From an uncultured Gemmatimonadales bacterium (GTDB lineage: Bacteria > Gemmatimonadota > Gemmatimonadetes > Gemmatimonadales > GWC2-71-9), in contig CAVZZO010000003.1 of the NCBI GenBank assembly GCA_963779755.1, positions 1,472,001-1,536,000 of the forward strand: 64,000 nucleotides of DNA, given 5' to 3'. Shown piece by piece: positions 16,366 through 34,662 of this stretch. How positions within the stretch are numbered: the first letter of the stretch is position 1; every line of letters starts with the position of its first letter. A program made the position numbers and the translations under genes. The notes below the pieces were generated by a model. That model was not told the origin of the DNA. It saw only the letters and a program-made list of their open reading frames with translations, and searched no databases.

Positions 16366-16944
16366 TTACGGGTTCTTGAGATACTTTGCCTGCTTCGCCA
16401 GCTCTTCCGCGGTGGCTCGGATGTCGTCTGCCGAAAGGTCCTGGCCTGTGATCGCGTCGTGAAGAGCTCGCCGGCCCGCTCGGTTCAGACCAAGATCCTT
16501 CACGATTCGATCGACTTCTCTGTTCGGGCCTGCGTTGTCGCCACGCCCCTTGCCGGCTTGAGCAAACTGCACAGAGCCGTCGACCAACGCGCCGATGGCA
16601 GCACCCACGGCGGCACCTTTAATAGCCCCGGCAGTGGCGCCAGCCGAACCTCCGCCGATTGCGCACAGAGCCGCAACCGGACCTGCGGGAGAACATGCGA
16701 CGGCTCCGGCAGCAGCGCCTCCTGTCCCACCCCCTACCGCACCGATAATCGCCCCGACGCCTGTTCCCAACAAGGTCCAGAAGCCGGGGCAAGATGGACC
16801 AAAGTTGCTATCTTGGGGCGGGCAGAGTCCAAACGGATCGGTGTAGGCTACCGGATTCCCCCCCGCGTAGTCATACAGATTCACTCCACCGGCGAGCCCG
16901 ATGGGATCCTGGGTGAGGAACCGTCCCGTCCTGGGATCATACCA
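16366..16944 (-). pseudogene. orphan Rhs core end + toxin tip (Gly-rich helices, C-terminal LHD helical domain)
   Basis: [40 protein letters not shown]; no upstream Rhs body. Confidence 0.85.
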
Positions 16945-17083
16945 ATCCGCCGATTACCCAGATTACACCGATTCCATGTAAGAGGAAGGGCAATCGGTCG
17001 AATCTGCGTCATCGGCGGATTCCGAACCACGCCGGCGTTACAATGGTGACGCGGGTGAAGCGGCGGGCGGGTAGCATGGCGGG

Positions 17084-17515
17084 ATGCCGGCCCCCGCCTT
17101 GCCCCACGACCCCGACACTTACGCCATCATTGGCGCGGCCATGGAGGTCCATCGTGCCCTGGGCCCCGGCTATCTGGAGGCGGCCTATCGGGAGGCCCTG
17201 GCTTTCGCCTTCGCCAGTCGGCGGATTCCGTTCGCCAGCGAAGTACCCTTCCGGCTCTTCTTCAACGGCCGCCCGCTCATCACTCGTTACCGGGCCGACT
17301 TTGTCTGCTTCGACCAGGTCGTTGTGGAACTCAAGGCGTTGGCCGCCCTGACGGGCGTCGAGACGGCCCAGATCCTCAACTATCTCAAGGCGAGCGGATT
17401 GACCCGGGGACTCCTCCTGAATTTTGGGAATCCCAGCCTTCAGTACCGGCGCTTCGTCTGGAGCCAGGTGCTGTCTCCCGAACCATCGGCGCCATCGGCG
17501 CCATCGGCGGATTGA
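17084..17515 (+). CDS. GxxExxY protein (PD-(D/E)XK nuclease superfamily), copy 1
   Basis: GPGYLEAAY signature, RADF..VELKA, QILNYLK, GLLLNFG. Confidence 0.92.
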   Translation: MPAPALPHDPDTYAIIGAAMEVHRALGPGYLEAAYREALAFAFASRRIPFASEVPFRLFFNGRPLITRYRADFVCFDQVVVELKALAALTGVETAQILNYLKASGLTRGLLLNFGNPSLQYRRFVWSQVLSPEPSAPSAPSAD

Positions 17516-17692
17516 TGCTGGGTGAGGAACCGTCCCGTCCTGGGATCATACCAATCCGCCGATTACCCAGATTACACCGATTCCATGTAAGAGGAAGGGC
17601 AATCGGTCGAATCTGCGTCATCGGCGGATTCCGAACCACGCCGGCGTTACAATGGTGACGCGGGTGAAGCGGCGGGCGGGTAGCATGGCGGG

Positions 17693-18115
17693 ATGCCGGC
17701 CCCCGCCTTGCCCCACGACCCCGACACTTACGCCATCATTGGCGCGGCCATGGAGGTCCATCGTGCCCTGGGCCCCGGCTATCTGGAGGCGGCCTATCGG
17801 GAGGCCCTGGCTTTCGCCTTCGCCAGTCGGCGGATTCCGTTCGCCAGCGAAGTACCCTTCCGGCTCTTCTTCAACGGCCGCCCGCTCATCACTCGTTACC
17901 GGGCCGACTTTGTCTGCTTCGACCAGGTCGTTGTGGAACTCAAGGCGTTGGCCGCCCTGACGGGCGTCGAGACGGCCCAGATCCTCAACTATCTCAAGGC
18001 CAGCGGATTGACCCGGGGACTCCTCCTGAATTTTGGGGGTCCCAGCCTTCAGTACCGGCGCTTCGTCTGGAGCCAGCCGCCGTCCCCCGACCCATCGGCG
18101 CCATCGGCGGATTGA
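17693..18115 (+). CDS. GxxExxY protein, copy 2 (609-bp tandem duplicate)
   Basis: near-identical to copy 1. Confidence 0.9.
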   Translation: MPAPALPHDPDTYAIIGAAMEVHRALGPGYLEAAYREALAFAFASRRIPFASEVPFRLFFNGRPLITRYRADFVCFDQVVVELKALAALTGVETAQILNYLKASGLTRGLLLNFGGPSLQYRRFVWSQPPSPDPSAPSAD

Positions 18116-18390
18116 TGTTGGGTCAGCAAAGACCCGGTTGCGATCCGTCGTACCGCTGCCCGCCGCTAACTTGCTGCTGTTGTTTTTCTTAGTCGCCCCG
18201 CGTCAGCCGTCTGCATCATAACTTACGCGTTTTGGCCCTAGACGCGAGTTTCGAGATCGACTCACCCGGGCCCGAGGGCCGGCGGCCAGGCGCGGCCTCA
18301 ACGGAGGGATGCCGGAGTCTCCCGGGTCATGCTATCGTTCGGGGGTCTGTTGGCCGCCGTCACTATGGATCCGCCCTCGGACAGGCCGGT

Positions 18391-18651
18391 ATGCCGCGCA
18401 TCAGCCAGTTCTTTGGAGTCACGATTGTGATGTACTTCAACGATCACGCGCCACCACATTTTCATGCCCGGTATGGCGAGCATGAGTCCGCTATCGCGAT
18501 TGACACGCTGGGCCCCATCTGGGGGGACCTACCGCCCAGGGCGTTGGCACTGGTTCTGGAGTGGGCGGTGGGGCACCGAGCGGAATTGCTGGCCGACTGG
18601 GGGCGCGCCCGCGAAGGGCGGCCGCTCCTGCCGATTGCACCCCTGACTTGA
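18391..18651 (+). CDS. DUF4160 protein (TA-like)
   Basis: MPRISQFFGVTIVMYFNDHAPPHFHARYG. Confidence 0.88.
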   Translation: MPRISQFFGVTIVMYFNDHAPPHFHARYGEHESAIAIDTLGPIWGDLPPRALALVLEWAVGHRAELLADWGRAREGRPLLPIAPLT

Positions 18652-18667
18652 GCAAAGGGAGGTAGGT

Positions 18668-18949
18668 ATGTCGACTCGCGTTCGGCTCCGGGCGGTTCAG
18701 CCTCTCGAAGGCACTACCGTGCAGCTTGAATTGACCACGGGTGAAGAGCGCCGCATCGATCTGGCGCCCTTCCTTCGGGGTCCCGTGTTTGCGGCGATCC
18801 GTGAGTCAGCGGAACTGTTCCGACAGATCTCCGTGGACCCGGAGCTCGGCACCGTCGTCTGGCCCAACGGTGCCGACATCGATCCGGACGTACTGATCGG
18901 GGGGTTCCGTCCCGCTTGGCAGGACGAACCGGCCCCGACCTCCAGATAG
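18668..18949 (+). CDS. DUF2442 protein (TA-like partner)
   Basis: GTVVWPNGADIDPDVL. Confidence 0.88.
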   Translation: MSTRVRLRAVQPLEGTTVQLELTTGEERRIDLAPFLRGPVFAAIRESAELFRQISVDPELGTVVWPNGADIDPDVLIGGFRPAWQDEPAPTSR

Positions 18950-18959
18950 TCCAAGGTCC

Positions 18960-19296
18960 CCCGGCGCTGCCGGGGGCCATGCTCGCGGAGTTGGCGCAAG
19001 CGCTGAAAGTCTCCGCCGCGTTCGCCACTCGGGGGATTCCGTTCGCCAGCGAAGTGCCTTTCCGGCTCCTCTTCAACGGCCGCCCGCTCACCACCCGTTA
19101 CCGGGCGGACTTTGTCTGTTATGAACGGGTCATCGTGGAACTCAAGGCCCTGAGCGCACTCACCGACGCCGAAACCGCCCAGGTCCTGAACTATCTCAAG
19201 GCCAGCGGCCTGAGTCGTGGGTTGTTGATCACCTTCGGGGGCCCGAGTCTGCAGTACCGCCGCTTCGTCCCGACCCCGAAAGGCTCCTCGGCGTAA
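18960..19296 (+). pseudogene. XRE fragment fused to 5'-truncated GxxExxY
   Basis: PGAMLAELAQALKVSA (cf. 28073 ORF) joined to AFATRGIPFASEVP.. Confidence 0.7.
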
Positions 19297-19668
19297 TCGG
19301 TGCAATCTGCGGATTGGTGAGGAACCGTCCCGTCCTGGGATCATACCAATCCGCCGATTACCCAGATTACACCGATTCACGAGTCGGGAGGCCGTACGGC
19401 TCCGTACGACGGCGGCCAAGCGCTACAAACGGGTCGAGAACGCATGCGCGCTCATCTGGAAACTGCTGACGGTTGCGGAGACAACCTTCAGGAACCTGAA
19501 CGCGCCACACCGGCTCCGCGACGTTGCCGCCGGGCGGAAATACGAGAACGGCATCGCCGTTCACTCGAAACGGGTCGCCGCCTGATTCTCGTTTACACAC
19601 CTATTGAAACGAGCTCACCAAAGTGCGCGTGGCAGGCTAGGCTCCGCCATTGGGCGCAGTAGAAGGCA

Positions 19669-19695
19669 ATGAGGGCGCCGCTGAGGCGCCCTCAT
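19669..19695 (-). terminator. perfect 11-bp hairpin downstream of immunity gene
   Basis: atgagggcgcc-gctga-ggcgccctcat; U-tract weak. Confidence 0.45.
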
Positions 19696-19725
19696 GCGAT
19701 CATCAGTTGGAATCTCAGAGATGAG

Positions 19726-19968
19726 TCAGGGCAGGCCCAAACACGGCTCGTGCCACAGTCCAGGAATCCCTTCGAGTTGGTACAACGGATCACCACCGTG
19801 ATAGAAGCCGACGTCCTTCACCGTGGCGACCCTCCCAGCATACCCGAGCTGCTCAGAACTCAGCGGATGGTGAAGCTTCCATTCGTGGGCGAAGCGCTCC
19901 AAGTTCGCCTGTGCAGAGATCCGCACCTGTGCACCCACATGAAACCTGGCTTCATACGGCGTTGACAT
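19726..19968 (-). CDS. putative immunity protein
   Basis: directly follows the toxin tip. Confidence 0.65.
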   Translation of the reverse strand: MSTPYEARFHVGAQVRISAQANLERFAHEWKLHHPLSSEQLGYAGRVATVKDVGFYHGGDPLYQLEGIPGLWHEPCLGLP

Positions 19969-19980
19969 TTATCACCCATT

Positions 19981-20676
19981 CTATGGGGTAGGAGTGAAGG
20001 TGCCAGGCGCCACCGGGATTGGTTGCGTTGTCTGAAACTGTGCTGCCCCGCCGCTCGTGGCGGGACCGTTGAAAGGTGTCTTGAGCGCATCCGCCGGTAC
20101 CCTGAAAGTCGCTTGCATGGCACCCTTGCCTCCGTCGATCTCGAGAAGCGCCTCCGCCTCAGCAGCACTCTTGCCAGCGACTTCACCAGATGGGGTGACG
20201 AAACTGCCCGCACGAAGGGCCCCAGAACCTTCGATTGCAGCCGCCCCCTCGACACTTGTGAAGTGGGTGATAGCAACTGAGCGAAGCGAGGTACCGACCC
20301 TGCTCGCTACAATGCCGGCGACCTTCGCTCCCCCAATGAGCAGTGCCGCCTCAGCAGTGCCACGAAGAACGTGCCCGCTGCCGATATCGTTGCCCGCCGT
20401 CGCCGCCGCATTTAGACCCGTAGCGTGGAATGTCGCATTGAGAGCGGCTCCTGCATTAAGGGCCAAACTGCCAACAGCGCCACCTCGCCGAGCTCCCCAG
20501 TTTGCCAATCCTTGGGCGAGGCATTCTGTCCACGCCGACGACCCCTTGCATGGGTCCAACCCGAAGGGATCGCTAAAGCCGACCGGATTCCCCCCCGCGT
20601 ACGCATACAGATTGACCCCGCCCGCGAGGCCAATGGGATCCTGGGTGAGGAAGCGTCCCGTCTTGGGGTCATACCA
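19981..20676 (-). pseudogene. orphan Rhs tip, possible HYD1-type ADP-ribosyltransferase-like toxin
   Basis: FSDPFGL; THFTSVEGAAAIEGSGAL resembles the H-Y/F-T..G..I..SG signature. Confidence 0.75.
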
Positions 20677-20762
20677 ATCCGCCGATTACACAGATTGCGC
20701 GGATTCGCGAATCCGGAAAACCCAAGGAGGCAAATCTGAGTAATCAGCGTAATCTGCGGATT

Positions 20763-20968
20763 CATCCCGCTACCGGGCGGACTTTGTCTGTTCTGAACGG
20801 GTCATCGTGGAACTCAAGGCCCTGAGCGCACTCACCGACGCCGAAACCGCCCAGGTCCTGAACTATCTCAAGGCCAGCGGCCTGAGTCGTGGGTTGTTGA
20901 TCAACTTCGGGGGCCCGAGTCTGCAGTACCGCCGCTTCGTCCTGACCCCGAAAGGCTCAACGGCGTAA
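20763..20968 (+). pseudogene. GxxExxY 3' fragment
   Basis: [22 protein letters not shown] starting right after a repeat arm. Confidence 0.8.
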
Positions 20969-21107
20969 TCGGTGCAATCTGCGGATTGGTGAGGAACCGT
21001 CCCGTCTTGGGATCCTACCGATCCGCCGATTACACAGATTGCGCGGATTCGCGAATCCGGGAAAACCCAAGGAGGCAAATCTGAGTAATCGGCGTCATCG
21101 GCGGATT

Positions 21108-21313
21108 CATCCCGCTACCGGGCGGACTTTGTCTGCTATGATCGGGTCATCGTGGAACTCAAGGCCCTGAGCGCACTCACCGACGCCGAAACCGCCCAGG
21201 TCCTCAACTATCTCAAGGCCAGCGGCCTGCGTCGTGGGTTGTTGATCAACTTCGGGGGCCCGAGTCTGCAGTACCGCCGCTTCGTCCTGACCCCGAAAGG
21301 CTCCTCGGCGTAA
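21108..21313 (+). pseudogene. GxxExxY 3' fragment
   Basis: same break point as the 20763 copy. Confidence 0.8.
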
Positions 21314-21332
21314 TCGGTGCAATCTGCGGATT

Positions 21333-21470
21333 GGTGAGGAACCGTCCCGTCCTGGGATCATACCACCGGTTCCGGAAGTAGGTGAACCCGCCCGTCTGGT
21401 TCGGGGTGCTCCCACCGGTGAAGCCGGTCTCGGTGTTGGTCTGGCCCGCCGAGAGGCTGCCCATCCCCCA
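21333..21470 (-). pseudogene. Rhs core upstream fragment
   Basis: [36 protein letters not shown] identical to the 34883 Rhs, then repeat arm. Confidence 0.85.
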
Positions 21471-21627
21471 CCTGCGAGGAAAAAGGGCCGCCAAAGCCCT
21501 CCTCGATGCCCTCATCCTCAACACCCACGCCAAACGCTGGACCGGTACCGGGTTGAAGAGGGGCCGCTAAAACGAAGAGCCCAGCGCTGAGAGCCCCGGG
21601 CCCATCGCAGCCTCGCTCACAGCCGCT

Positions 21628-21915: not shown

Positions 21916-21925
21916 TCGAGTGTGG

Positions 21926-22567
21926 TCACTGACGCCATGCTGTGACTACCTTCCCCAGCAGGTTGATAGCGAAAGCAGCGGTCTGACCAGTGATCCGCAA
22001 GCTCTCTCGCCCCAATTGGTCAACAAGCGGCCCCGTAGTGGTGCCGTTCCGAGCCGCGTCCAGAAGAGCACCGGGGCTCACGCCTCGGTTGATAATCTGG
22101 TTGATGCCGTGCCCCGTGAATCCAGAGATCGCATTGCCGATGAACCGCGAGCCTACTGCGGCCACCGTCGCCCCCGCAGCACTCGCCTGCGTGGCGGCCC
22201 CGCTGGACAGCAGAGCCGAGCCAGCGGCGACTAGACCGTCCACAACCACTGCGCCGGTAACAACAGCCCCTGCAACTGCAGCTACAGCGCAGCCGGTGCT
22301 CTCCTTGCACGACGCGGCTGCGCCCTTGAGATCATTCAGGAGCCCGCCGTTGCCCTGAGCCGCCTCGTGCGCGTAGTAACCCGAGGACCCCTCGGGACAG
22401 TCGTCGTATTCGTCCGTCTTCCCGTCACCACCAGCATCCTCGGGACACAGACCAAATGGGTCAGCAAACGCGACCGGATTCCCCCCCGCGTACGCATACA
22501 GATTGACGCCACCCGCGAGGCCGATGGGATCCTGGGTGAGGAACCGTCCCGTCCTGGGATCATACCA
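21926..22567 (-). pseudogene. orphan Rhs tip, BECR-fold RNase-like toxin
   Basis: AFADPFGLC; HGINQIINRGVS..N..GKVVTAW. Confidence 0.75.
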
Positions 22568-22649
22568 ATCCGCCGATTGCGCAGATCCTTCACCTTACAT
22601 CTTCCAATTTACTCAAGAAGGATTCCACAGACAGCGCCGCGCCGCCTGG

Positions 22650-22971
22650 AGTACCGCCGGATGGTCTTCAGCCCTCCCCGAAGCGGCTGATCTGTCCGCT
22701 GCTCCAGGCCCAACGCGGGGAGCACGCCGTCACCGCGAAGCGGCTGAAGGGCGACCTGGCCGGGCTGGTGGAGATCGTCGACGACTTCGACGGGAATACC
22801 TACCGGGCTGTGTACACCACCAAGCTGGCCGGCGTCGTCTACGTGCTGCACATCTTTCAGAAGAAGGCGACGCACGGCATCGCGACGCCCAAGCGGGAGC
22901 TCGATCTGATCACGACCCGGCTCCGGCGGGCGAGAGAGCATCATACAGCACAGAGAGACCGGGAGACCTGA
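22650..22971 (+). pseudogene. degenerate RelE/HigB (Gp49-like) toxin
   Basis: 3' part paralogous to 27602 ORF (TYRAVYTTKLAGVVYVLH.FQKK); 5' part decayed. Confidence 0.7.
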
Positions 22972-22972
22972 C

Positions 22973-23275
22973 ATGGCGGAACGGATCACGATCACCAAGG
23001 GAAGCGGGAACGTCTTTGCCGATCTAGGGCTGCCCGATGCCGAGGAGCTCCTGGTCAAGGCCACGCTTCTGGCGCGGGCGCTCAAGGTGTCTGCGGACGA
23101 GTTGCTCGGGCTTAAGGCCGTGACAGAGAAGACCACCCCCAAGGCGGCCCGCCTCCTCAAGCGGCTGCAGAAGATCACCGACCTTCCGGCGGCTGATCAG
23201 CGCACCGTACTCAAACTCCTCGACGCCCTCCACGAATCCCGCCAGCGCACCAACCGGCCCCGCGCCACGGGTTAA
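22973..23275 (+). CDS. chimeric HigA-N::XRE-C protein
   Basis: KGSGNVFADLGLP (HigA) fused to LARALKVSADELLGL..LPAADQRTVLKL (XRE). Confidence 0.65.
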   Translation: MAERITITKGSGNVFADLGLPDAEELLVKATLLARALKVSADELLGLKAVTEKTTPKAARLLKRLQKITDLPAADQRTVLKLLDALHESRQRTNRPRATG

Positions 23276-23290
23276 GCCCCAGCAAGAGGA

Positions 23291-23320
23291 AAGCCCGGTC
23301 AGTTGACCGGGCTCCTTTGT
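23291..23320. terminator. hairpin terminator between convergent genes
   Basis: agcccggtca-gt-tgaccgggct then T-rich tract. Confidence 0.6.
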
Positions 23321-23354
23321 TGTCAGTTCATGGAAAGCACGGACCAATCTTCGA

Positions 23355-23945
23355 CTACTGGGCGTTTGCGGGAATCTCAATACTTTCAGCGATGTGCATC
23401 AAGGGCGCGAGAGAATCCGAGTCTGCGACTGCGACGAAGGAGAGAAACGTCAGACTATCAATTTTCCAGTATGCCTGCATATGAACCCCGGTACCGGTTG
23501 CCTGATGGCCCACGAACACTTGGGCGATGAAATCTCTGCCGTTGCTGTTGCCGATGCACCATCCATGGGTGGCCGCCTCAGAGTCCTCCAAGACACGCCG
23601 TACGAGCGCATGTGCCTCCCTGTCAACTGTGATGCCGATGCTTCCGTAGCCATCAAGCATCCAGCTTCTCACGGCGGAATCTCGAGGGAGCGGCTTGGCA
23701 TTGGATGGAAGGGCTAAGCGCACCCCCAACAGGCCAAGAGGCGATGTCTGCCAGTCAAGAGGACTGGATGGGGAGACACTACAGGAATTGAGCTTCGCCC
23801 GTTGGGCACGAGGTGGTTGTTCGGTCCTTGTGCAGTCCATCCCACTGGCGAGGATGAAGCTAATGAGCCCCATCGATATCGCCCTTCGGGACAGCGCATT
23901 TCGGCTGGCCGGCGGACGAATCGCCCGATGCCTAGAACCCACCAT
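23355..23945 (-). CDS. putative exported immunity protein (start uncertain)
   Basis: overlaps toxin end; hydrophobic stretch followed by Cys. Confidence 0.55.
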   Translation of the reverse strand: MVGSRHRAIRPPASRNALSRRAISMGLISFILASGMDCTRTEQPPRAQRAKLNSCSVSPSSPLDWQTSPLGLLGVRLALPSNAKPLPRDSAVRSWMLDGYGSIGITVDREAHALVRRVLEDSEAATHGWCIGNSNGRDFIAQVFVGHQATGTGVHMQAYWKIDSLTFLSFVAVADSDSLAPLMHIAESIEIPANAQ

Positions 23946-24532
23946 GATCGCACCTCGGAGCCTTTCCGCGCTGCGAGTTGTAGACGTTGTCTCCGTGGAC
24001 GATGGCGAACTGCTCACTACGGTTCATGGACTTCCCGAGGGCCACCGGAGCATGATGGAGGAGCTCGTGTGCGAAGACTTGGCCCAAAGTAAACGATTCG
24101 CCCCCGCCGTCACATTTTCCCCATTCCCCAGTGTTATACCCGATCTTATCAGAGTTTCGAAACACCGTGACGGCAAGCGGATCGAACTGCTCCGAGCTCA
24201 TGTCATCTGACAAGTGGAAGTTGAAAGTCACCTTCCCGGTGAAGACCATGTGTCGGAAGGCCGCCTGGATCTCGGCAAACTTCTCATTCCCCCTTGCCTT
24301 GAAGCTCTCAACGCAGTTGGACTTGTCCCAAGTGATGTCCGTGTCCGTGGCATCGCCAGTGGCCTTCTTCGCCTTGTCGAGGTCTTCCGGCGTCTTCCCC
24401 GTAGCGCACACCTTCAGCCCGAACGGATCACTGAACGCTACCGGGTTCGACCCCGCATAGGCATACAGATTGACCCCGCCGGCGAGCCCGATGGGATCCT
24501 GGGTGAGGAAGGATCCCTGGCCGGAATCGTAC
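23932..24532 (-). pseudogene. orphan Rhs tip, HExxH metallopeptidase-like toxin
   Basis: [32 protein letters not shown]. Confidence 0.8.
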
Positions 24533-24548
24533 CCTCAGGCTGTTCGAC

Positions 24549-24947
24549 CTAACGCCAAGCCACGGTCGTGATCTCGGGCGCCAAGGCAAAATGGGAGTCG
24601 CGAGTGGCGAGCGCGAGATCATGCTCCAGCGCCAGCGCCGCGATCCAGATGTCGTTCTCGGGAATCGGGGTTCCGCGGGCTCGCAGACCGGCCTTCACTT
24701 CCCCATACCGCTGTGCGGTCTCCACTCCGCACGGCAGCACGGCGGCAATCCGGCTCAACTGCTCGATGGCCTGGAGGTTCTGGGCCGGACGGGCGGACTT
24801 CTGGGCCCCGTAGTACAACTCCCCGAGCGCGATGGCCGGCACGAACACTGCCGCCGCGCCCGCTACCGCCGCCGTGACCGCCTGCTCGTCGGCGAGAAGG
24901 GCAATGAGAATATTGGTGTCGAGAAGGTACCTACCAGCCGGCGGCAT
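24549..24947 (-). CDS. vapC: PIN-domain toxin
   Basis: LLDTNILI, GELYYGA, PENDIWIAA, TRDSHF. Confidence 0.92.
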   Translation of the reverse strand: MPPAGRYLLDTNILIALLADEQAVTAAVAGAAAVFVPAIALGELYYGAQKSARPAQNLQAIEQLSRIAAVLPCGVETAQRYGEVKAGLRARGTPIPENDIWIAALALEHDLALATRDSHFALAPEITTVAWR

Positions 24948-25146
24948 CAGTCCGCTCGCAGTCGGCCTCGATCGCCGCGGCCATTCGCCCTAGGTCGTCA
25001 GGCGGAATCGCTCCGGACAATGCGAGCAGGGGACCGCGGGCGCTTGCCTGCTCCAACACCCGGATGTAGGCAAGCGCCCGCTCCTGGTCGGGCGGAGGAA
25101 GCCGCCGTACCCGGGCGGCGAGGTCATCGGATGGCGATGCGGTCAT
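24931..25146 (-). CDS. antitoxin upstream of vapC
   Basis: [26 protein letters not shown]; overlaps vapC start. Confidence 0.65.
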
Positions 25147-25210
25147 CAGGCCTCCTTGTTCCCCGGAATATAATCTCCCGCGGGCCAGCGCCCTCGCCCA
25201 GAGGGCGCGG

Positions 25211-25869
25211 TGCATGGCGGAGACGCTGCGCCGGTGGGTACGGCAGGCGGAACGGGATGCCGGGCAGCGGCCGGGGCTGACCACCGAGGAGCAGCAGCGG
25301 CTCAAGGCGCTGGAGCGGGAGAATCGGGAACTGCGCCGGGCCAATGAGATTCTGCGGAAGACGTCGGCGTTTTTTGCCCAGGCGGAGCTCGACCGCCGCG
25401 GGCCGTGATGCCGGAGTTCATGACGCCCACCGGGAGACGTACGGAGTCGAGCCGATCTGTACGCAGACTGCCGCGCTCCAGGACCGGGACACCGATGCGG
25501 GGCTGATTCATCAGAGCGATCACGGGGTGCGGTACCTCTCAATCCGGCACACCGAGCCCTTGGCGGAGGCCGGGATCTAACCCTCGGTCGGGAGCCGGGG
25601 GGATTCCTACGACAACGCCCTGGCGGAAACGGTACTCGGGCTGTTCAAGACGGAACTCATCCGCCAGGCCGGCCCCTGGCGCGGGCTGGACGACGTCGAG
25701 TACGCCACGCTGGAGTGGGTGGCCTGGTTCAACACCCAGCGCCTGCTGGAACCCCTGGGCTATCTTCCCCCCGCGGAGTCGAGGAGCAGTTTCACCGTAC
25801 CGCATCGGCTCAACTCACTGATGGGGTACTCGCGTGTAACCGAGTCTCCGGAAAAGCCGGGGCGATTCA
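25211..25869 (+). mobile_element. IS3-family remnant: OrfA C-half, internally deleted OrfB, right IR
   Basis: [60 protein letters not shown]. Confidence 0.85.
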
Positions 25870-25911
25870 CCGAGGCGATTCAGTCCACGAAATCGGGGCC
25901 GGACCACCGAG

Positions 25912-26214
25912 CTATGCTCGACCCGCCTTCCCCGGCCGTTTGCGCCGCGCGCGGGCCTTTGGTGTTCCGGCTGCCACCTCGAGTTTGTCACCGGGGGCAG
26001 GAGTGGCATCCGGCACCTTGCCCAAGGCCTTCAGATAGGCCGGCCGGGACCCGCGCTTCGCCCGGGCCCCCAGGTACTCTTCGGTCAGCAGCGCCGCCAG
26101 CTTCTCCGCCACCGCGGTGCTCACAAACTGGTTCAGCGAAATCCCCTCCCGCTCGGCGAGTTCCCGGGCGCGGGCGTGAAGGGAGTTCGGCAATCTGAGA
26201 CTCAGAGCGCTCAT
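25912..26214 (-). CDS. RHH/HicB-like antitoxin
   Basis: MSALSLRLPNSLH..EGISLNQFV. Confidence 0.8.
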   Translation of the reverse strand: MSALSLRLPNSLHARARELAEREGISLNQFVSTAVAEKLAALLTEEYLGARAKRGSRPAYLKALGKVPDATPAPGDKLEVAAGTPKARARRKRPGKAGRA

Positions 26215-26636
26215 AGCATTCCTCCGATCTGTTCGAGAAAGGCAACCGGAGATACCGGTGTCACCCCGAAGCGCTCGCTCCCCGCGAAGTCCCGGTGGTT
26301 GAAGGTGAGAATCCGGTTGCATTGCCCGTTGACCGCCGCTTCCAGGACCATGTCATCCCTGGGGTCCGGCAACACGGGCCGCCACAGGAAGTGGATCGGC
26401 TGGTGTTCGCCCGCGGCACAGAGGTAGTCGAGGACGGCGTCAACCTCCGCCTTGGAGAGCTGGTGCCCAGCCCCGCGACGCTTCAGCACCTCTTCATACT
26501 CCAGCACCAGAGGGACCGACACCACGTGTGCGAACCGCTTGGTACCGACCAGGGTCAGCAGCTGGTATGACGCGCCGCGCTGCGAGCGCAGGCCGGCCAC
26601 CAGGACATTGGTATCGAGCACGACCCGTGGCACCAT
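26211..26636 (-). CDS. PIN-family putative toxin (toxin-first TA)
   Basis: VLDTNVLVAG, DPRDDMVLEAA, TFNHRDF. Confidence 0.88.
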   Translation of the reverse strand: MVPRVVLDTNVLVAGLRSQRGASYQLLTLVGTKRFAHVVSVPLVLEYEEVLKRRGAGHQLSKAEVDAVLDYLCAAGEHQPIHFLWRPVLPDPRDDMVLEAAVNGQCNRILTFNHRDFAGSERFGVTPVSPVAFLEQIGGML

Positions 26637-26641
26637 GCGGT

Positions 26642-26670
26642 ATTATAGGTGATACCGCATCAGCTGGCAA
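26642..26670 (-). promoter_or_regulatory. sigma-70 promoter, probably leaderless mRNA
   Basis: TTGCCA-17 nt-TATAAT ending a few nt before ATG 26636. Confidence 0.7.
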
Positions 26671-26959
26671 ACGCCCGCCGCGGATGACGGCGACGATCGC
26701 AGTACCTGCTCACGACGCGGGTCGAATCGCAGGCACTTCCTGCCCGCCCTTACGACAGCCTGACCTACGCCTTCGACCGCCGGGGCAATCTGCTGGTCCC
26801 GGCCGAAGCGCGTGGGGCCGGCAAAGGAGGGTATGTCCTCTGTCGCCGGCAAGACTGCGGCAGCTATCCTGAAGAAGGCAAGTACACTGGATTGGAGGAC
26901 AGACGATGGAAGATCATGCCCGGCCTCCATCTCTGAATCGTTGCGTAGGGCTCGTCCAG

Positions 26960-27130
26960 GAGCGCAATGGGCCGCGATCCGGTCCGCTGCGACCAAGCTG
27001 GGTGCACTGCGGAGACATTTCGACAGATCCGCAGATTGCACAGATGGGGCCGGACGGCATCCGCGGATTGCGCAGATGGGCAGCAACGCCTCCGCCTTCA
27101 GGCAGGACGATTCCGCAGATGCAGGATGGC
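26960..27130 (+). other. IS3 OrfA scrap followed by three 9-bp-periodic repeat arms
   Basis: QWAAIRSAATKLG(C)TAET; atccgcagattgcacagat, atccgcggattgcgcagat. Confidence 0.6.
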
Positions 27131-27273
27131 CCCGATTCCGCGCCAACCGGGTACCAGGTGCCCGGAACAGATCACTGCTCTTGCTCCATGATCGGTCGGC
27201 ACGACCCGGCTCCCGGCGCCCGAATAGTGCCGAAAGCCGCGGCTAGCGAAGAAGACGAGCGCCGCGCGTGGAC

Positions 27274-27600
27274 TCAGGCGACGACGCGGAGCCGGCCCCG
27301 TCCCCGGCGTCGCGCGGGCTTCCGGATCACGATGTCAATATCGCGGCCCAGGGCGCGGAGAAAGCCGATCAGCCGCTCGGTGGAGTAGTCCGCGAGCCGG
27401 CCATGGAGGATGTGGGAGACCTTGGGCTGGTCCACCCCCATGAGCTTGGCCGCAGCCCGCTGGGTCAGGCCCCGCCGCTCGATAATCTCGCCGATCTGGA
27501 CCGCCAGCATCGCCTTGGCCAGCCGTTCCTCGGGGTTCGGCAGCCCGAGATCCGCAAAGACGTTGCCGCTCCCTTTGGTGATCTTGATCCGTCCCGCCAT
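27274..27600 (-). CDS. higA: HigA-like XRE antitoxin
   Basis: GSGNVFADLG, LTQRAAAKLMGVDQPKVS, STERL. Confidence 0.85.
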   Translation of the reverse strand: MAGRIKITKGSGNVFADLGLPNPEERLAKAMLAVQIGEIIERRGLTQRAAAKLMGVDQPKVSHILHGRLADYSTERLIGFLRALGRDIDIVIRKPARRRGRGRLRVVA

Positions 27601-27601
27601 C

Positions 27602-27964
27602 TCACTCCTCCGCGTGTCGGTGCGCCGCGTGATGCTCCCGGGCCCGCCGGAGCCGGGCCTTGATCAGCGCGAGCTCCCGCTTGGGCGTCGCAATGCCGTG
27701 GATCGCCTTCTTCTGAAAGACGTGCAGCACGTAGACGACGCCGGCCAGCTTGGTGGTGTACACCGCTCGATACGTGCTCCCATCGTAATCCTCGACGACT
27801 TCCACCAGCCCGTGCAGATCCCCCTTGAGCCGCTTGGCCGCCGGATGCTGCCTCCCGATCTGGGCCTGATAGAGCGCGTAGCCCACGGTGTCCTGGATCG
27901 GGTCCGGACAGGCGCGGAGATCGTCGAGGCTCGAGCCCATCCAGTGCACCGGGGTGAGCGGCAT
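27602..27964 (-). CDS. higB: RelE/HigB (Gp49-like) toxin
   Basis: WMGSSLDDL, GYALYQAQ, YVLHVFQKK. Confidence 0.85.
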   Translation of the reverse strand: MPLTPVHWMGSSLDDLRACPDPIQDTVGYALYQAQIGRQHPAAKRLKGDLHGLVEVVEDYDGSTYRAVYTTKLAGVVYVLHVFQKKAIHGIATPKRELALIKARLRRAREHHAAHRHAEE

Positions 27965-28072
27965 GATAGAATATGCGGATACTGGCATGTAGGCGCCAGT
28001 CCCCGCTCCGCCGGATGGGTCCGGCCATGCACCGCCTTGAGCTGGGCGATGGCCACCCGGGTGTAGAGCGCC

Positions 28073-28420
28073 GTGGTGGCGGAGATTCGCCAGCGCCGGG
28101 GGCTGACCCCGGAAGAATTAGGGAAAGCGGTGGGCGTGTCGAACCGGGTGGTGGCCTACTACGAGGGACACACCGCGCAGCCGCCCGGGGCCATGCTGGC
28201 CGATTTGGCCCGCGCCCTCAAAGTCTCGGCCGACGAATTACTCGGTTTGAAGCCCACCACAGACAAACAGCCGCCCAAAACGGCGCGGCTGCTCAACCGC
28301 CTCCAAAAGGTGGCTGACTTACCGGCCGCCGATCAGCGCACCGTCCTCAAGCTCATCGAGGCACTCGCAGAGGCGCGGCGGTCGGCGCGACCTCGCAAAA
28401 AGGCCCGCGCAGCCAGCTGA
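28073..28420 (+). CDS. XRE-family transcriptional regulator (start uncertain)
   Basis: RQRRGLTPEELGKAVGVS..YYE HTH; LPAADQRTVLKLI. Confidence 0.8.
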   Translation: MVAEIRQRRGLTPEELGKAVGVSNRVVAYYEGHTAQPPGAMLADLARALKVSADELLGLKPTTDKQPPKTARLLNRLQKVADLPAADQRTVLKLIEALAEARRSARPRKKARAAS

Positions 28421-28492
28421 CGGAAGGAGAGAGAGCCTGGTCACCACGACCAAGCTCTCAGGGCTAACGGCCCGCAGCCGAGTGGTGGTAGA

Positions 28493-28792
28493 TCATTCGG
28501 GAACATCTGATGCAGCAAACAATACGAGCTCGGGACCCTCGTGGGCCTTCTCCGGCTGACCAACGAGCTTGCTGTCGGCAGGCAAGTGCACATGTAGCGT
28601 CTTAGTGTAGCCGCCCACTGCGAGGCGGGCAAACACCTCAGCAAGGTAGCGCAAGCCAGCGGAATTGCCCCACACATAGAAGTCGCCGTCCTTGACTTCA
28701 ACCAAGTAGTTGCCTCCGGTGCGGAGCAACTGATTAGGCAGATCGATCTGATTCGGGTCCTTCACGTCAAACTTTATCTCAAGGCTAGGCAT
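28493..28792 (-). CDS. immunity protein, Imm32-like
   Basis: GNSAGLRYLA..LA..HVHL pattern; follows toxin. Confidence 0.65.
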   Translation of the reverse strand: MPSLEIKFDVKDPNQIDLPNQLLRTGGNYLVEVKDGDFYVWGNSAGLRYLAEVFARLAVGGYTKTLHVHLPADSKLVGQPEKAHEGPELVLFAASDVPE

Positions 28793-28809
28793 TTCCTTCT
28801 CCCGAATTG

Positions 28810-29460
28810 CTATGGCTGAACATGGCTGTTGCTGTAGGAGCCGTCAGCTCCCCACACCTCGACATTCCCGTGAAGCTGAGGAGAGCCCCCACGAGTTAGC
28901 GGGTGCGTCTCCACGCGAATGTCTACCTTTGTGCCGTCAGGAAAAACAATCGCTACTCCCTGACCGCCTCTGGTAGCATGCGGCTCAACTGTGGCCCCTG
29001 CATCCGATACTGCCTGAACAATCTGCTCGTTGGTAACCTGTGAAGAGCCGTCCCCCAACGAGCCGATAGTTCTACCGAGGACTGTTCCTTCCGCAGCACC
29101 AACCACCTTGTTCAGTACCGCACCCGCCACCTTGATCCCGCCGAAGAGAAGGGCGACGTCCTTAGCTCCCCCGGAAATGTCCCCACTTCCGATCTTGTCG
29201 CCGGCAGCAGCCGCGAAGTTAACCCCAAGAGCCTCAAGGCCAGCGTTAGCGGCGGCGCCTGTCCACAATGCGGCCTTACCGACTATGCCGCCTCGAGAAG
29301 CACCCCAGTTGGCTAATCCTTGGGCGAGGCATTCTGTCCACGCCGACGACCCCTTGCATGGGTCCAGCCCAAACGGATCACGAAACGCAACCGGATTCCC
29401 CCCCGCATACGCATACAGATTGACCCCACCGGCGAGCCCGATGGGATCCTGGGTGAGAAA
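28810..29460 (-). pseudogene. orphan Rhs tip with His-rich putative nuclease end
   Basis: FLTQDP..FRDPFGL; RVETH..HGNVE..NSH. Confidence 0.8.
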
Positions 29461-29688
29461 ACACCTGATAGCGTTTCCCGCCTACGATCCCGCGCTCCTA
29501 AGCCGCTTCAGTTGTTCAGTTTAGCCGCTCCGCTCTTGCCGATCTTGATCATAAGATGCACCCGAAAAGGCCGGGACGTGAGTTTCGGGGCCGACTCCGC
29601 CGTCCTCTACCGGCGTCAAGGTACTTCATGCGGTGCGTGGCCGAATCGTGAGTGCGCGGGCAGCCAGTTCGCTGGAGGATCGTTCATG

Positions 29689-30099
29689 CTAGATGGTGGC
29701 CTTCTCACGGGGGATGGGCTTCGAGAGTAGGCTGTACGTGAGAAGACCGACGATAACTCCTGGGCCAAGCCGTATGAGGTAGTCCAATCGGACAAGGAGC
29801 AGCAGGACAGAAAGAGTGACTGGGCTTGACACGATCCAGGCGACGCGACGACCGAGCGCGGACCACCTCCGGCTGACCCTGAGTATCAGCAGCTGATGGA
29901 GGATGCTGCCCACTGAAACCGGCAAGAGCGCGACCAATAGGGGGAGAAGGAGGTCGCCAAACGAGGAAACCTCCGTTGGGCCAGGGAGAAAGCGCTCACT
30001 GATCACGAGGGTGAGGACAGCCAGTGGCAGCGCGACGAAATCCATGATCGCCACATTGCGCACCAGCTGCCTCATCTGGTGGTCGTCCAGTTTTCTCAC
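29689..30099 (-). CDS. membrane immunity-like protein
   Basis: about 4 TM segments, follows toxin. Confidence 0.6.
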   Translation of the reverse strand: MRKLDDHQMRQLVRNVAIMDFVALPLAVLTLVISERFLPGPTEVSSFGDLLLPLLVALLPVSVGSILHQLLILRVSRRWSALGRRVAWIVSSPVTLSVLLLLVRLDYLIRLGPGVIVGLLTYSLLSKPIPREKATI

Positions 30100-30491
30100 C
30101 CAACACTCCCTGAAAGCACTCTAAGGCTTAGCCTCATTCTTAATTCGATCAACTCCACAGGCCAAGGCACACAGTGAGGTCGAGGATTCCGTTTGCTGTA
30201 GGACAGTGTGCGCCTTGCCGTCGGCGTCGTAATAGTATGCTTCAAGAGAAGGGTAGTGACTCGCGAACCCGTCAACGCTGTAGCTTCCGCTCCCGTTTGG
30301 CTTGAATTCCAAATACCCAGCGACGCCTGGTACCGTTGTCTTCGAATCGTGTCCCTCAAGCGAGATGGTAATCTTCCCGTCTGGGCCGAATGACGCCCCG
30401 ATTTGATTGAAGGGCGACGGACTCTTGCTGCATGACCCACCCGACGTACATGAAGGGGAGAATCCATGTGTGATCTCGCGCTGGTTCTTAG

Positions 30492-31865
30492 GGTGCCGTC
30501 CCGATTCGTGTAGAAAATTGAAATGGCGTATGCTTCCGGGATGATCGAACCCCGATCCGCCGAAGTGCGGATCTAACCCGGAGGCATACGCCATGAGAGA
30601 AGTTACGGCCACGGAGCAGGGGTGGGAAGCACTGGTCGGGGCGGACCCGCTTACGGCGGCCCTGCGCCGCGAAGCGCGGCGCTGGATTGAGCGCATGTTG
30701 CACGAGGAATTGGCGGCCGTCTTGGGCAGCGGCCGGCATGAGCGGACCGCCGCCCGGCAGGGATACCGGCACGGCACCCGGCGGCGGCGGGTGACGACCA
30801 GCCTGGGCCCCGTGGATCTCGCCATCCCGCGAGGGCGGGTGCAGGCGGGCGCCGAGCTGCGGGAATGGCAGAGCGGGCTGCTCCCGCGGTACGCGCGCCG
30901 AGCCCGGGCGGTGGATGCGGCGCTGATCGGCTTCTACTGCGGGGGCGGTAATCAGCGGCGGCTCGCCCGGGCGCTCCGCTCGCTGCTGGCCGACGGTCCC
31001 GCCTCGCGGAGCACGGTCTCGCGCGTCGTGCGGGGCCTGCGGCAGGGCTACGAGGCGTGGCGCGACCGCCCCCTGGGAGCGTTAGGGGTGCAGTATCTCT
31101 ATCTGGATGCGATTCACCTCCACGTGCGGGTGCTCAAGCGGGTCGAGCCGCTCCCGGTCCAGGTGGCGGTCGGGGTGCGGCCCGACGGGCAGAAGGTGCT
31201 GCTGGATCTCCGGCTCTACGTCGCGGAGAGCGCCGCGGCCTGGGGCGACTTCGTGCGCGGTCTGGTGGAGCGCGGCCTGGTCGCGCCGGCGCTGGTGATC
31301 ACCGACGGCAGCAAGGGTCTGCGCCGGGCGCTGAGCGAGATCTGGCCGCAGGCTGCGGTGCAGCGCTGCACGGTGCATAAGCTGCGCAACCTGGCGGCCC
31401 ACTGCCCGCAGCGGCTCTATCCGGCCGGCAAGCGCGACTACCACGCCATCGTGTATGCCGCCGATGCGGAGGCGGCGCGGCGGGCCTGGGGGCGGTTTAC
31501 CCGCCGCTGGGGCCGGGAGCTGCCGGGGGTGGTGGCGAGCCTGGAGGAGGCGGGCGAGGAGCTGCTCACGTTCTATCGCCTGCCGAAGGCGCAGTGGAAG
31601 AGCCTGCGCACGACGAATATCGTCGAGCGCGTGCTGGAGGAGGTGCGACGGCGAGTCAAAACGCAGGGATCGCTGCCCAGCACCGAGGCCGTCCTGGTGC
31701 TCGGCTACGGTCTGATCGCGACGGGGCAACTGCCCTTGCGGCGGATTGCCGGCTGGCGAACCTTGCCCCGTGTCAGTAACCGTCAAGCGGCTGCATGAGC
31801 GCCTGACACGCTTGGAGGCCCGGAGACAGCGCCCATTGATTTTCTACACAACTCGGGACACGACC
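30492..31865 (+). mobile_element. IS256-family element with 9-bp TSD GGTTCTTAG
   Basis: TSD at 30483-30491 and 31866-31874; IRs GGT..GTCCCGA..GTGTAGAAAAT. Confidence 0.93.
30593..31798 (+). CDS. IS256 transposase
   Basis: YLYLDA, ITDGSKGL, QRCTVHKLRN, RTTNIVER. Confidence 0.93.
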   Translation: MREVTATEQGWEALVGADPLTAALRREARRWIERMLHEELAAVLGSGRHERTAARQGYRHGTRRRRVTTSLGPVDLAIPRGRVQAGAELREWQSGLLPRYARRARAVDAALIGFYCGGGNQRRLARALRSLLADGPASRSTVSRVVRGLRQGYEAWRDRPLGALGVQYLYLDAIHLHVRVLKRVEPLPVQVAVGVRPDGQKVLLDLRLYVAESAAAWGDFVRGLVERGLVAPALVITDGSKGLRRALSEIWPQAAVQRCTVHKLRNLAAHCPQRLYPAGKRDYHAIVYAADAEAARRAWGRFTRRWGRELPGVVASLEEAGEELLTFYRLPKAQWKSLRTTNIVERVLEEVRRRVKTQGSLPSTEAVLVLGYGLIATGQLPLRRIAGWRTLPRVSNRQAAA

Positions 31866-32225
31866 GGTTCTTAGTATCGACAACGATATAGCCCCGGGAC
31901 TGCGCCGGGTCGGACGAACTGGAGAAGCCCCGGCCGTCACCCTTTAGCCCCGGAAAGACGGTCTTGGACTGGATGAAGAAGGAGAAACAGAGTGTGTTCG
32001 GCTGGTTCTTATCTGGGCACAGCCCGAACGGGTCGCTGAACGCAACCGGATTCCCCCCCGCATACGCATACAGATTGACCCCGCCGGCGAGCCCGAGGGG
32101 ATCCTGGGTGAGGAACCGTCCCGTCCTGGGATCATACCAATCCGCCGATTACCCAGATTACACCGATTCACGAGTCGGGAAGACCTGGGGAGGCGGATCT
32201 GAGTAATCGGCGCAATCTGCGGATT

Positions 32226-32423
32226 CATCCCGCTACCCGGCCGACTTTGTCTGCTTCCATTGTGGAACTCAAGGCGTTGGCAGCGCTGACGGGCGTCGAG
32301 ACGGCCCAGGTTCTCAACTATCTCAAGGCCAGCGGCCTGAGTCGTGGGTTGTTGATCAACTTCGGGGGCCCGAATCTGCAGTACCGCCGCTTCGTCCTGA
32401 CCCCGAAAGGCTCCTCGGCGTAA
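32226..32423 (+). pseudogene. GxxExxY 3' fragment (small deletion)
   Basis: begins after repeat arm; [14 protein letters not shown]. Confidence 0.78.
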
Positions 32424-32561
32424 TCGGTGCAATCTGCGGATTGGTGAGGAACCGTCCCGTCTTCGGATCATACCAATCCGCCGATTACCCAGATTACACC
32501 GATTCACGAGTCGGGAAGACCTGGGGAGGCGGATCTGAGTAATCGGCGCAATCTGCGGATT

Positions 32562-32767
32562 CATCCCGCTACCGGGCGGACTTTGTCTGTTATGATCGGG
32601 TCATCGTGGAACTCAAGGCCCTGAGCGCACTCACCGACGCCGAAACCGCCCAGGTCCTGAACTATCTCAAGGCCAGCGGCCTGAGTCGTGGGTTGTTGAT
32701 CAACTTCGGGGGCCCGAGTCTGCAGTACCGCCGCTTCGTCCTGACCCCGAAAGGCTCCTCGGCGTAA
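32562..32767 (+). pseudogene. GxxExxY 3' fragment
   Basis: same break point as the 20763/21108 copies. Confidence 0.8.
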
Positions 32768-32958
32768 TCGGTGCAATCTGCGGATTGGTGAGGAACCGTC
32801 CCGTCCTGGGATCATACCAATCCGCCGATTACCCAGTTTACACCGATTCCATGTAAGAGGAAGGGCAATCGGTCGAATCTGCGTCATCGGCGGATTCCGA
32901 ACCACGCCGGCGTTACAATGGTGACGCGGGTGAAGCGGCGGGCGGGTAGCATGGCGGG

Positions 32959-33381
32959 ATGCCGGCCCCCGCCTTGCCCCACGACCCCGACACTTACGCC
33001 ATCATTGGCGCGGCCATGGAGGTCCATCGTGCCCTGGGCCCCGGCTATCTGGAGGCGGCCTATCGGGAGGCCCTGGCTTTCGCCTTCGCCAGTCGGCGGA
33101 TTCCGTTCGCCAGCGAAGTACCCTTCCGGCTCTTCTTCAACGGCCGCCCGCTCATCACTCGTTACCGGGCCGACTTTGTCTGCTTCGACCAGGTCGTTGT
33201 GGAACTCAAGGCGTTGGCCGCCCTGACGGGCGTCGAGACGGCCCAGATCCTCAACTATCTCAAGGCCAGCGGATTGACCCGGGGACTCCTCCTGAATTTT
33301 GGGGGTCCCAGCCTTCAGTACCGGCGCTTCGTCTGGAGCCAGGTGCTGTCTCCCGAACCATCGGCGCCATCGGCGGATTGA
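32959..33381 (+). CDS. GxxExxY protein, copy 3
   Basis: GPGYLEAAY, ELK motifs. Confidence 0.9.
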   Translation: MPAPALPHDPDTYAIIGAAMEVHRALGPGYLEAAYREALAFAFASRRIPFASEVPFRLFFNGRPLITRYRADFVCFDQVVVELKALAALTGVETAQILNYLKASGLTRGLLLNFGGPSLQYRRFVWSQVLSPEPSAPSAD

Positions 33382-33656
33382 TGTTGGGTCAGCAAAGACC
33401 CGGTTGCGATCCGTCGTACCGCTGCCCGCCGCTAACTTGCTGCTGTTGTTTTTCTTAGTCGCCCCGCGTCAGCCGTCTGCATCATAACTTACGCGTTTTG
33501 GCCCTAGACGCGAGTTTCGAGATCGACTCACCCGGGCCCGAGGGCCGGCGGCCAGGCGCGGCCTCAACGGAGGGATGCCGGAGTCTCCCGGGTCCTGCTA
33601 TCGTTCGGGGGTCTGTTGGCCGCCGTCACTATGGATCCGCCCTCGGACAGGCCGGT

Positions 33657-33917: not shown

Positions 33918-33933
33918 GCAAAGGGAGGTAGGT

Positions 33934-34215: not shown

Positions 34216-34225
34216 TCCAAGGTCC

Positions 34226-34468: not shown

Positions 34469-34662
34469 ATTTTCGAGGCCGACTCGCGCCCGAGCGTCGG
34501 CAGCCGGGCTCACTTGTAGTCCTGGTTCTAGGAGCGTCTGTTCTCTCAGCCTCCAAACGGAAGCGATCACTGCGAGGCAGTGGCAGGCTTCAAGCCCCTC
34601 AGGAAGGAATCCTGCACGGCGACTTTGGCGCGAATCGCTTGAAGGCTCGCATCCGGCTGAAA

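Follow-up and report, generated by a model that had tools for sequence, protein, structure and literature searches.

We describe an Rhs toxin array in a window of 64,000 nucleotides (positions 1,472,001 to 1,536,000 of contig CAVZZO010000003.1, assembly GCA_963779755.1) from an uncultured Gemmatimonadales bacterium. An array of orphan toxin tips beside an intact rhs gene has been colonised by foldback elements that carry a gene of the GxxExxY family and that hold between them a captured 33-bp piece of rhs. Most of the junctions between these elements and the 33-mer are copies of one another, produced by tandem and segmental duplication of 0.3 to 2 kb, and we think it probable that one or two founding joints were later spread by such duplication together with the homologous recombination that moves Rhs tips. 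The source genome comprises 4,234,673 bp in 4 contigs with 68% G+C; positions below are window coordinates unless prefixed by C1 or C3, which denote contigs of that genome.

The 33-mer, which is rhs coding sequence read on the minus strand, occurs 11 times in the window when up to 3 mismatches are allowed (8 copies exact, 1 with 2 mismatches and 2 with 3) as compared to 0 expected from 100 shuffles, and a search of the entire genome that tolerates up to 5 mismatches yields just the same 11 copies, all in this locus. This agrees with a first-pass annotation of the same DNA, in which one copy had been placed in the long rhs reading frame at 35453 and ten elsewhere. The copies are arranged as follows.

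35453..35485, minus strand: native 33-mer, rhs core upstream and tip downstream
32787..32819, minus strand: 33-mer between two element termini (arm-33-arm)
32443..32475, minus strand: 33-mer with 2 mismatches, between two element termini
32107..32139, minus strand: 33-mer with an arm upstream, start of tip D
22535..22567, minus strand: 33-mer with an arm stub of about 20 nt upstream, start of tip C
21333..21365, minus strand: 33-mer preceded by 87 bp of rhs core (21366-21452) and followed by an arm
20988..21020, minus strand: 33-mer with 3 mismatches, between two element termini
20644..20676, minus strand: 33-mer with 3 mismatches and an arm upstream, start of tip B
19316..19348, minus strand: 33-mer between two element termini
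17521..17553, minus strand: 33-mer preceded by an arm and followed by CAGCATC and the terminal arm of GxxExxY copy 1
16912..16944, minus strand: 33-mer with an arm upstream, start of tip A

Read on the minus strand, nine of the 11 copies have ...AATCGGCGGAT immediately ahead of them (on the plus strand, ATCCGCCGATT...), and these arm|TGG joints end at 16944, 17553, 19348, 20676, 21020, 22567, 32139, 32475 and 32819; five copies (19316, 20988, 21333, 32443 and 32787) are directly followed by AATCCGCAGATTGCACCGATTACGCCG. At all five of the latter joints the arm is an identical 27 nt, each time on a homologous 3' fragment of a GxxExxY gene. The arms are two orientations of a repeat with a 9-bp period, and the exact joints that had been reported, nine with one orientation and five with the other, are thus confirmed. 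On the plus strand a unit runs from the 33-mer through a foldback of 77-86 nt (outer arm, loop, inner arm) and a GxxExxY gene or 3' fragment to a terminal arm and the next 33-mer; since the outer termini of the elements face the 33-mer, it sits between elements and not within one. Both the foldbacks and the arm-33-arm joint are predicted to form hairpins (z -4.0 to -4.9, with none of 200 shuffles equally stable). To judge from its sequence, the odd joint of the copy at 17521 (33-mer, CAGCATC, arm) looks like the ordinary joint of a 609-bp tandem duplication.

That the repeat structure arose in the assembly of this metagenome-derived genome is, in our estimation, very improbable. Given how repetitive the region is, the 340-bp and 609-bp units could have been assembled in a wrong number of copies, but the junction copies diverge by 2-10%, a divergence not to be expected of collapsed or chimeric assembly, and the joints recur in independent short contigs assembled from public soil reads (4 runs of one study that possibly includes the source sample, with word shares of 0.07-0.27). 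For instance, the joint of fragment, arm, 33-mer and core is present in record 12 of run X2 and the arm-33-arm joint in record 17 of run X3, and record 2 of run X1 carries the joint as far as the 33-mer. At the sequence level the junctions are therefore not an artefact, a possibility that the first-pass annotation had named. Two long-range joints in the soil contigs were discarded, since either a variant copy or paralogous copies (the 21365 locus) account for them.

The rhs gene that contains the native 33-mer, and the orphan tips that accompany it, are these.

34883..39055, minus strand: intact rhs gene, 1390 aa, with RHS core, QDPIGL boundary and colicin-E5-like tip
16366..16944, minus strand: orphan tip A, 192 aa from the Trp codon
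19981..20676, minus strand: orphan tip B, 231 aa
21926..22567, minus strand: orphan tip C, 213 aa
31783..32139, minus strand: orphan tip D, whose reading frame enters an IS256-family element
23932..24534, minus strand: unarmed orphan tip with a decayed 33-mer copy (GYDSGQGSFLT)
28810..29484, minus strand: unarmed orphan tip in which rhs homology begins just about 9 nt ahead of the Gln codon

The RHS-associated core domain (TIGR03696) lies at residues 1152-1230 of the intact protein (E = 2.3e-19, 69.7 bits against a cut-off of 32.5), and the Colicin_E5 profile matches its tip. QDP(I/L)GLAGG is present in 7 of 7 tip starts and the sequences are unrelated from about 40 residues onward, that is, variable C-terminal tips follow a DPxGL boundary as is expected of an Rhs toxin array; the other hallmark of such arrays, silent downstream tips that retain a fragment of the core, is seen in the six orphans. 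Tips A (16944), B (20676), C (22567) and D (32139) all begin at the same TGG (Trp) codon, as had been claimed, and the core remnants of the two unarmed tips (24534 and 29484) are ragged or decayed. An in-frame TAA precedes the Trp codon by 4 codons at eight of the nine armed joints and by 10 at the ninth, 22567, with no in-frame ATG, GTG or TTG between the TAA and the Trp codon at armed joints. Small open reading frames (ORFs) come after the tips, where cognate immunity genes would be expected, none of them with a Pfam match. At the end of the tip D reading frame is an IS256/Mutator-family transposase gene (30593-31798, plus strand; PF00872, E = 3e-79), on the far side of which a 234-aa ORF (30121-30825, minus strand) may be the rest of the tip. 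Tip B (20479-20652) and the unarmed tip at 29484 (29287-29460) have their first ~60 residues after DPFGL in common, at 88% identity at the DNA level, and then diverge; the orphan tips are themselves mosaics.

The GxxExxY genes are the other component of the array. Nine of the 12 matches to TIGR04256 in the genome lie here (3 full and 6 partial), with 3 full genes outside, and the array copies have arms on both sides, in line with the bracketing that had first been noticed. The full proteins score 130-131 bits with TIGR04256 (cut-off 35) and 120-122 bits with PF13366 (PDDEXK_3; cut-off 22), and both the GxxExxY motif and a D...ELK motif can be read in the three intact array genes. No relative of solved structure was found in a sequence search with the protein, and a survey of PD-(D/E)XK proteins lists the GxxExxY/PF13366 family as of unknown function. 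The copies and their foldbacks are listed next.

17084..17515, plus strand: full GxxExxY gene 1, 143 aa, whose last codons are the 3' arm
17693..18115, plus strand: full GxxExxY gene 2, 140 aa
32959..33381, plus strand: full GxxExxY gene 3, 140 aa
18916..19296, plus strand: GxxExxY copy lacking its 5' part (profile positions 32-116), whose terminal arm adjoins a 33-mer
34182..34679, plus strand: GxxExxY copy truncated at both ends (profile 32-95)
32140..32442, plus strand: degenerate element made of an 86-nt foldback (32140-32225), a GxxExxY 3' fragment and a terminal arm
32476-32786, 20677-20987 and 21021-21332: sister copies of this degenerate element
32820..32896, plus strand: 77-nt foldback ahead of full GxxExxY gene 3
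16945-17021 and 17554-17630: sister copies of this 77-nt foldback

Comparison of the window with itself revealed how these parts were multiplied. One repeat is the following.

17285..19202 and 32567..34468, plus strand: segmental duplicate, 1918 bp at 94.7% identity

It contains a 33-mer, a foldback, a full GxxExxY gene, a DUF4160 and a DUF2442 gene and a partial GxxExxY gene. The DUF4160 and DUF2442 genes form a duplicated pair (18232-18949 and 33498-34215, plus strand), of which the former is DhiT-like and under the NCBIfam cut-off. A further 816 bp (20551-21365 and 32014-32819) are 89.7% identical, with three 33-mers in each copy, and there are a 609-bp tandem unit (16912-17529 and 17514-18129, 96.6%) and tandem units of 336-345 bp at 92-95% (for instance 32107-32505 and 32443-32849 at 92%). 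A block of about 290 bp, made of a GxxExxY 3' fragment, arm, 33-mer and outer arm, is present in five copies at 94.6-98.2%, with the pair 19094-19378 and 32565-32849 at 98.2%. The terminal word AATCGGCGGAT is common to all nine arm|TGG joints, and the repeat family elsewhere in the genome mostly ends CTGCGGTT or CTGTGGAT; such a locus-specific terminal word fits a single origin. Truncated GxxExxY copies are joined at short microhomologies, as in ordinary joints, and the paralogue homology of the copy at 34182..34679 ends at 34468, where the newest tip and its presumed immunity region start, so that the distal breakpoint of this tip is inside a GxxExxY fragment and not at the 33-mer. The first-pass annotation had envisaged many independent repeat-directed cuts or insertions that built the toxin library, a proposal that we do not sustain, the junctions being largely duplicates. 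It had also named the opposite possibility, a single old insertion copied by ordinary duplication, and this comes close to what the self-comparison shows.

The evidence for exchange at the 33-mer lies in how uniform it is. Across the main gene and the four armed tips, 3 of 33 columns are polymorphic in the 33-mer as compared to 30 of the following 90 (Fisher p = 0.006), or 2 of 11 against 21 of 30 at third codon positions (p = 0.005), although these p-values overstate the effect because the compared copies are related. The main gene and tips A, C and D show 0 differences in the 33 positions and 13-17 in the next 90 nt. Likewise, a patch of 63-74 bp (33-mer and outer arm) is 100% identical in 16912-16974, 17521-17583, 19316-19378 and 32107-32169, and 96.8-98.4% identical in 32443-32505 and 32787-32849, and both of its flanks differ among the copies. 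Identity to the main gene is 98% for the core fragment at 21366-21452, but the array next to this fragment is just ~90% like its paralogue. A uniform 33-mer and patch amid diverged flanks imply gene conversion or crossover at this short homology, and as far as sequence comparison can tell, the uniformity of the 33-mer points to exchange still going on.

The fixed junctions by themselves require no site-specific enzyme. The repeat block and rhs share just 33 bp, so any homologous exchange between them resolves inside the 33-mer and gives the same junction nucleotides, and because the armed tips share the 33 bp and about 90 bp more, ordinary recombination can set the same arm|33 joint before different toxins. 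We take the locus to be a C-terminal-displacement array, with one intact rhs gene and six silent orphan tips, into which GxxExxY foldback elements have moved. Each element consists of a small PD-(D/E)XK-type gene flanked by inverted arms of 9-bp words. The founding events, one or two in number, would have left 33 bp of the hyperconserved rhs end caught between the outer termini of two elements. The resulting block of about 290 bp (3' part of an element, arm, 33-mer, arm) and larger segments would then have multiplied by tandem and segmental duplication and by homologous exchange with rhs tip starts. The units of element and 33-mer would thus be tip-less pseudo-cassettes that ride the same recombination as Rhs tip displacement in the circle-and-crossover model (Jackson et al. 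2009). Both the order of these events and the choice of homologous recombination rather than a dedicated enzyme as the maker of the joints are what we infer from the anatomy.

Several points, in addition to the relatedness of the compared copies, weigh against this scheme. The layout at 21365-20644 (core, 33-mer, element, 33-mer, element, 33-mer, tip) has one 33-mer more than it has elements. One insertion that duplicated no target, then multiplied in plain tandem fashion, would not yield this; the founding layout calls for a target duplication of 33 bp, for a pair of insertions that had exactly 33 bp between them and went on to recombine, or for a template switch at a hairpin. RecA-type recombination is inefficient when the crossover has to fall within 33 bp. 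Nevertheless at least one (core-33-arm at 21365) occurred, and probably several, and the identity of the 63-74-bp patch is much recent exchange for so short a homology. Nine of the genome's 12 GxxExxY matches, moreover, are concentrated in this one array of 19 kb.

The link with Rhs was then sought beyond this array. Five other rhs tip starts in the source genome have no arms; within the window, three tip starts of other rhs families (42245-42385, 44222-44365 and 52302-52448; motifs RYYDPE.GRFL.. and RSVDPATGRF..) have contiguous core upstream and are unarmed. Among 401 genomes of the order (the source and 400 others, no genus-mate included) the junction word GCGGATTGGTAYGAYCC has exact matches solely in the source genome and 0 in the 400 others. 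At up to 1 mismatch, near matches are found in 41 genomes, and the 30 loci inspected are unrelated coding sequence or other repeats, with no arm beside rhs; 25 further places are known by the 17-mer alone. A degenerate junction pattern of 37 nt had 0 matches in a metagenome scan, whose collection may not include the source genome or close kin, and an index of other DNA windows returned no look-alike of the array stretch. We also surveyed flanks of 3-4 kb around GxxExxY relatives that are 40-67% identical: an rhs tip start was credible at 0 of 14 loci in genome contigs (the best tblastn match, E = 0.02, has an internal stop) and appeared at 0 of 21 loci in metagenome contigs at E <= 1. The search of related genomes that the first-pass annotation had suggested thus returned no second case among the 400 genomes, the metagenome scan and the 35 loci of GxxExxY relatives. 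Within the array, a decayed second rhs site beside GxxExxY genes 2 and 3 (33381-33420 and 18113-18150), in which RYD..TG..LTQ with a frameshift can be read by eye, was dropped after its alignment score of 10 (as compared to 7.5 +/- 1.5) was reached by 191 of 2000 shuffles.

The elements themselves are more widespread. The genome harbours a family of gene-less foldbacks of about 170-190 bp with inverted ends GGAWCCRCAGATTACRCAGATT..., built of the 9-bp word GATTACGCA, and at C3:1465413-1465953 a GxxExxY gene is bracketed by ends of this family. At C1:2086479-2086829 a more distant GxxExxY gene lies between inverted arms whose word, CGCGAAG, is another one; these arms have the end GGAACCGC in common with the GATTACGCA family, and arm word and GxxExxY gene thus seem to co-vary. 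GxxExxY relatives from other phyla (loci L031-L033 and L037 of our survey) are likewise found between arms, L031 and L032 with the same word. The same gene-plus-arms layout thus recurs; the capture of a toxin-gene segment and its multiplication in an Rhs array were found here only. Our search of the literature on GxxExxY and PDDEXK_3/PF13366 found no description of such a class of gene-plus-arms elements. Arm words are carried by 9 of the 28 long-period tandem arrays of the genome, 0 of these at an rhs gene (for instance C1:709486-710826, a 266-bp unit in 4.9 copies, and C1:717195-718452, a 270-bp unit in 4.7 copies), and tandem arrays of element and spacer are a general habit of the repeat family in this genome. 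Around 15 solitary elements no flanking direct repeat was clearly above chance (shared words reach 4-8 nt at most, and 8 of 200 shuffles equalled the best case); the 33-bp duplication is therefore not the normal insertion mode of the family.

Alternatively, the nuclease-like protein might drive the shuffling. GxxExxY would cut at the arm termini (beside GCGGAT) or in the 33-mer, the break would expose the 33-mer, and annealing or invasion at another 33-mer would copy the unit of element and 33-mer in a homing-like manner and swap silent and expressed tips. The exactness of the joints at outer termini, the strong homogenisation of the 33-mer against its diverged flanks, the three intact genes with their motifs in the array and the predicted hairpin of the arm-33-arm joint (z = -4.65) would all suit such a process, and the 33-element-33 layout with its one extra 33-mer is what staggered cutting or homing would be expected to leave. 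We nevertheless regard it as rather unlikely: the solitary elements have no target duplication, most of the joints are demonstrably duplicates, the five other rhs tip starts of the genome are untouched, no joint was seen outside the source genome in the searches above, and the literature search on the family gave no biochemical evidence of DNA cutting. The related notion that the elements are nuclease-armed recombination handles, in which self-cutting at the arm termini bares the captured 33-bp rhs piece, drives homing and makes the replacement of the expressed rhs tip by silent ones more frequent, is one that we consider unlikely. A different enzyme acting in trans could be imagined if the 33-mer were an attachment (att)-like core site for a conservative site-specific recombinase of the integron or integrase kind, and identical direct repeats do flank the cassettes with hairpin-forming sequences beside them. 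We consider this very unlikely, however, as 0 of 5 tyrosine-recombinase matches lie in the window (the closest one on the contig is over 1 Mb distant), serine-recombinase matches number 0, the 33-mer is ordinary rhs coding sequence, and the two unarmed orphan tips have ragged remnants. Duplication together with homologous recombination thus remains the explanation that we favour.

This explanation builds on the published picture of Rhs C-terminal displacement, in which orphan tips recombine with the main gene via shared core through circular intermediates (Jackson et al. 2009, PMC2935791); for Salmonella, Koskiniemi et al. (2014, PMC3967940) give the shared core stretch as 522 bp long and 95% identical. 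The displacement arrays described by these authors and by Poole et al. (2011, PMC3150448) resemble ours in having one full rhs gene followed by silent tips, which begin with the hyperconserved core end just ahead of DPxGL and are exchanged via that sequence. They differ in having core remnants of varying length; here exactly 33 bp are kept in 4 of 6 orphans, because the terminus of a repeat element replaces everything upstream, and the same 33 bp also separate tip-less element copies.

Other known systems are likewise matched in part. Repetitive extragenic palindromic (REP) sequences, their hairpin-forming doublets (REPINs) and the REP-associated tyrosine transposases (RAYTs) share with our elements dispersed palindromic repeats, a single gene flanked by repeats and the lack of a target duplication, but their partner is an HUH (Y1) transposase and here it is a protein of PD-(D/E)XK-type fold; an affiliation was rejected when 0 of the 3 Y1_Tnp genes of the genome proved to be flanked by GATTACGCA-type arms. 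The target-site duplication expected of terminal-inverted-repeat transposons and miniature inverted-repeat transposable elements was not seen in the 15 solitary elements. Integron arrays, with attC hairpins and IntI, also have promoterless cassettes separated by hairpin-forming repeats at exact joints; here, however, no integrase is nearby, the shared core is toxin coding sequence and the arms carry a nuclease-like gene. As for homing endonuclease elements, the native site at 35453-35485 has the form of an empty allele.

The gain, storage and redeployment of Rhs and other polymorphic-toxin tips are still explained by the hypothetical circle-and-crossover model alone, and this locus displays a very short shared core (33 bp) kept uniform across 11 copies. 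It further suggests that a selfish repeat element can enter the traffic of Rhs tips as a tip-less pseudo-cassette, and it provides the uncharacterised GxxExxY family with a concrete candidate DNA substrate, the arm hairpins beside a defined 33-mer. Should the nuclease stimulate the exchanges, Rhs tip switching would have its first associated enzyme, and if the elements did act as recombination handles, a selfish element would have been co-opted, or merely tolerated, as the motor of a toxin-diversification locus. If the nuclease is not involved, the array would be a clear natural example of concerted evolution and duplication mimicking site-specific junctions.

Some further observations concern the elements and their surroundings. 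The 5'-truncated GxxExxY copies (18916-19010 and 34182-34280) are fused to a short piece resembling an Xre-type helix-turn-helix (HTH) gene (..LAQALKVSA.., compare 28073-28420), a fusion that suggests an older rearrangement joint. Two more inverted pairs of ATCCACAGAT../..ATCTGTGGAT arm termini lie in the window outside the rhs array (1501-1568 and 5387-5519), and at C3:1553600-1554300 a GxxExxY gene is followed by three direct arm units of 21 bp and then by a putative tRNA gene on the opposite strand. Another rhs gene, 12.3 kb past the end of the window, is interrupted just a few codons downstream of its DPFGLC tip start by an IS200/IS605-type Y1 transposase gene (C3:1548286-1548912) that brings its own hairpins and has an identical copy at C1:2364775; here, too, a mobile element has landed in an rhs tip. 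Finally, toxin-antitoxin-type genes are clustered among the orphan tips at 22600-28420: PIN (24549-24947), HicB with PIN_3 (25912-26636), Gp49/HigB-like with HTH_37 (27274-27988) and an Xre-type HTH gene (28073-28420) with a fragment at 22973-23275, and the cluster contains an inverted repeat of 333 bp (22735-23067 and 27838-27506).

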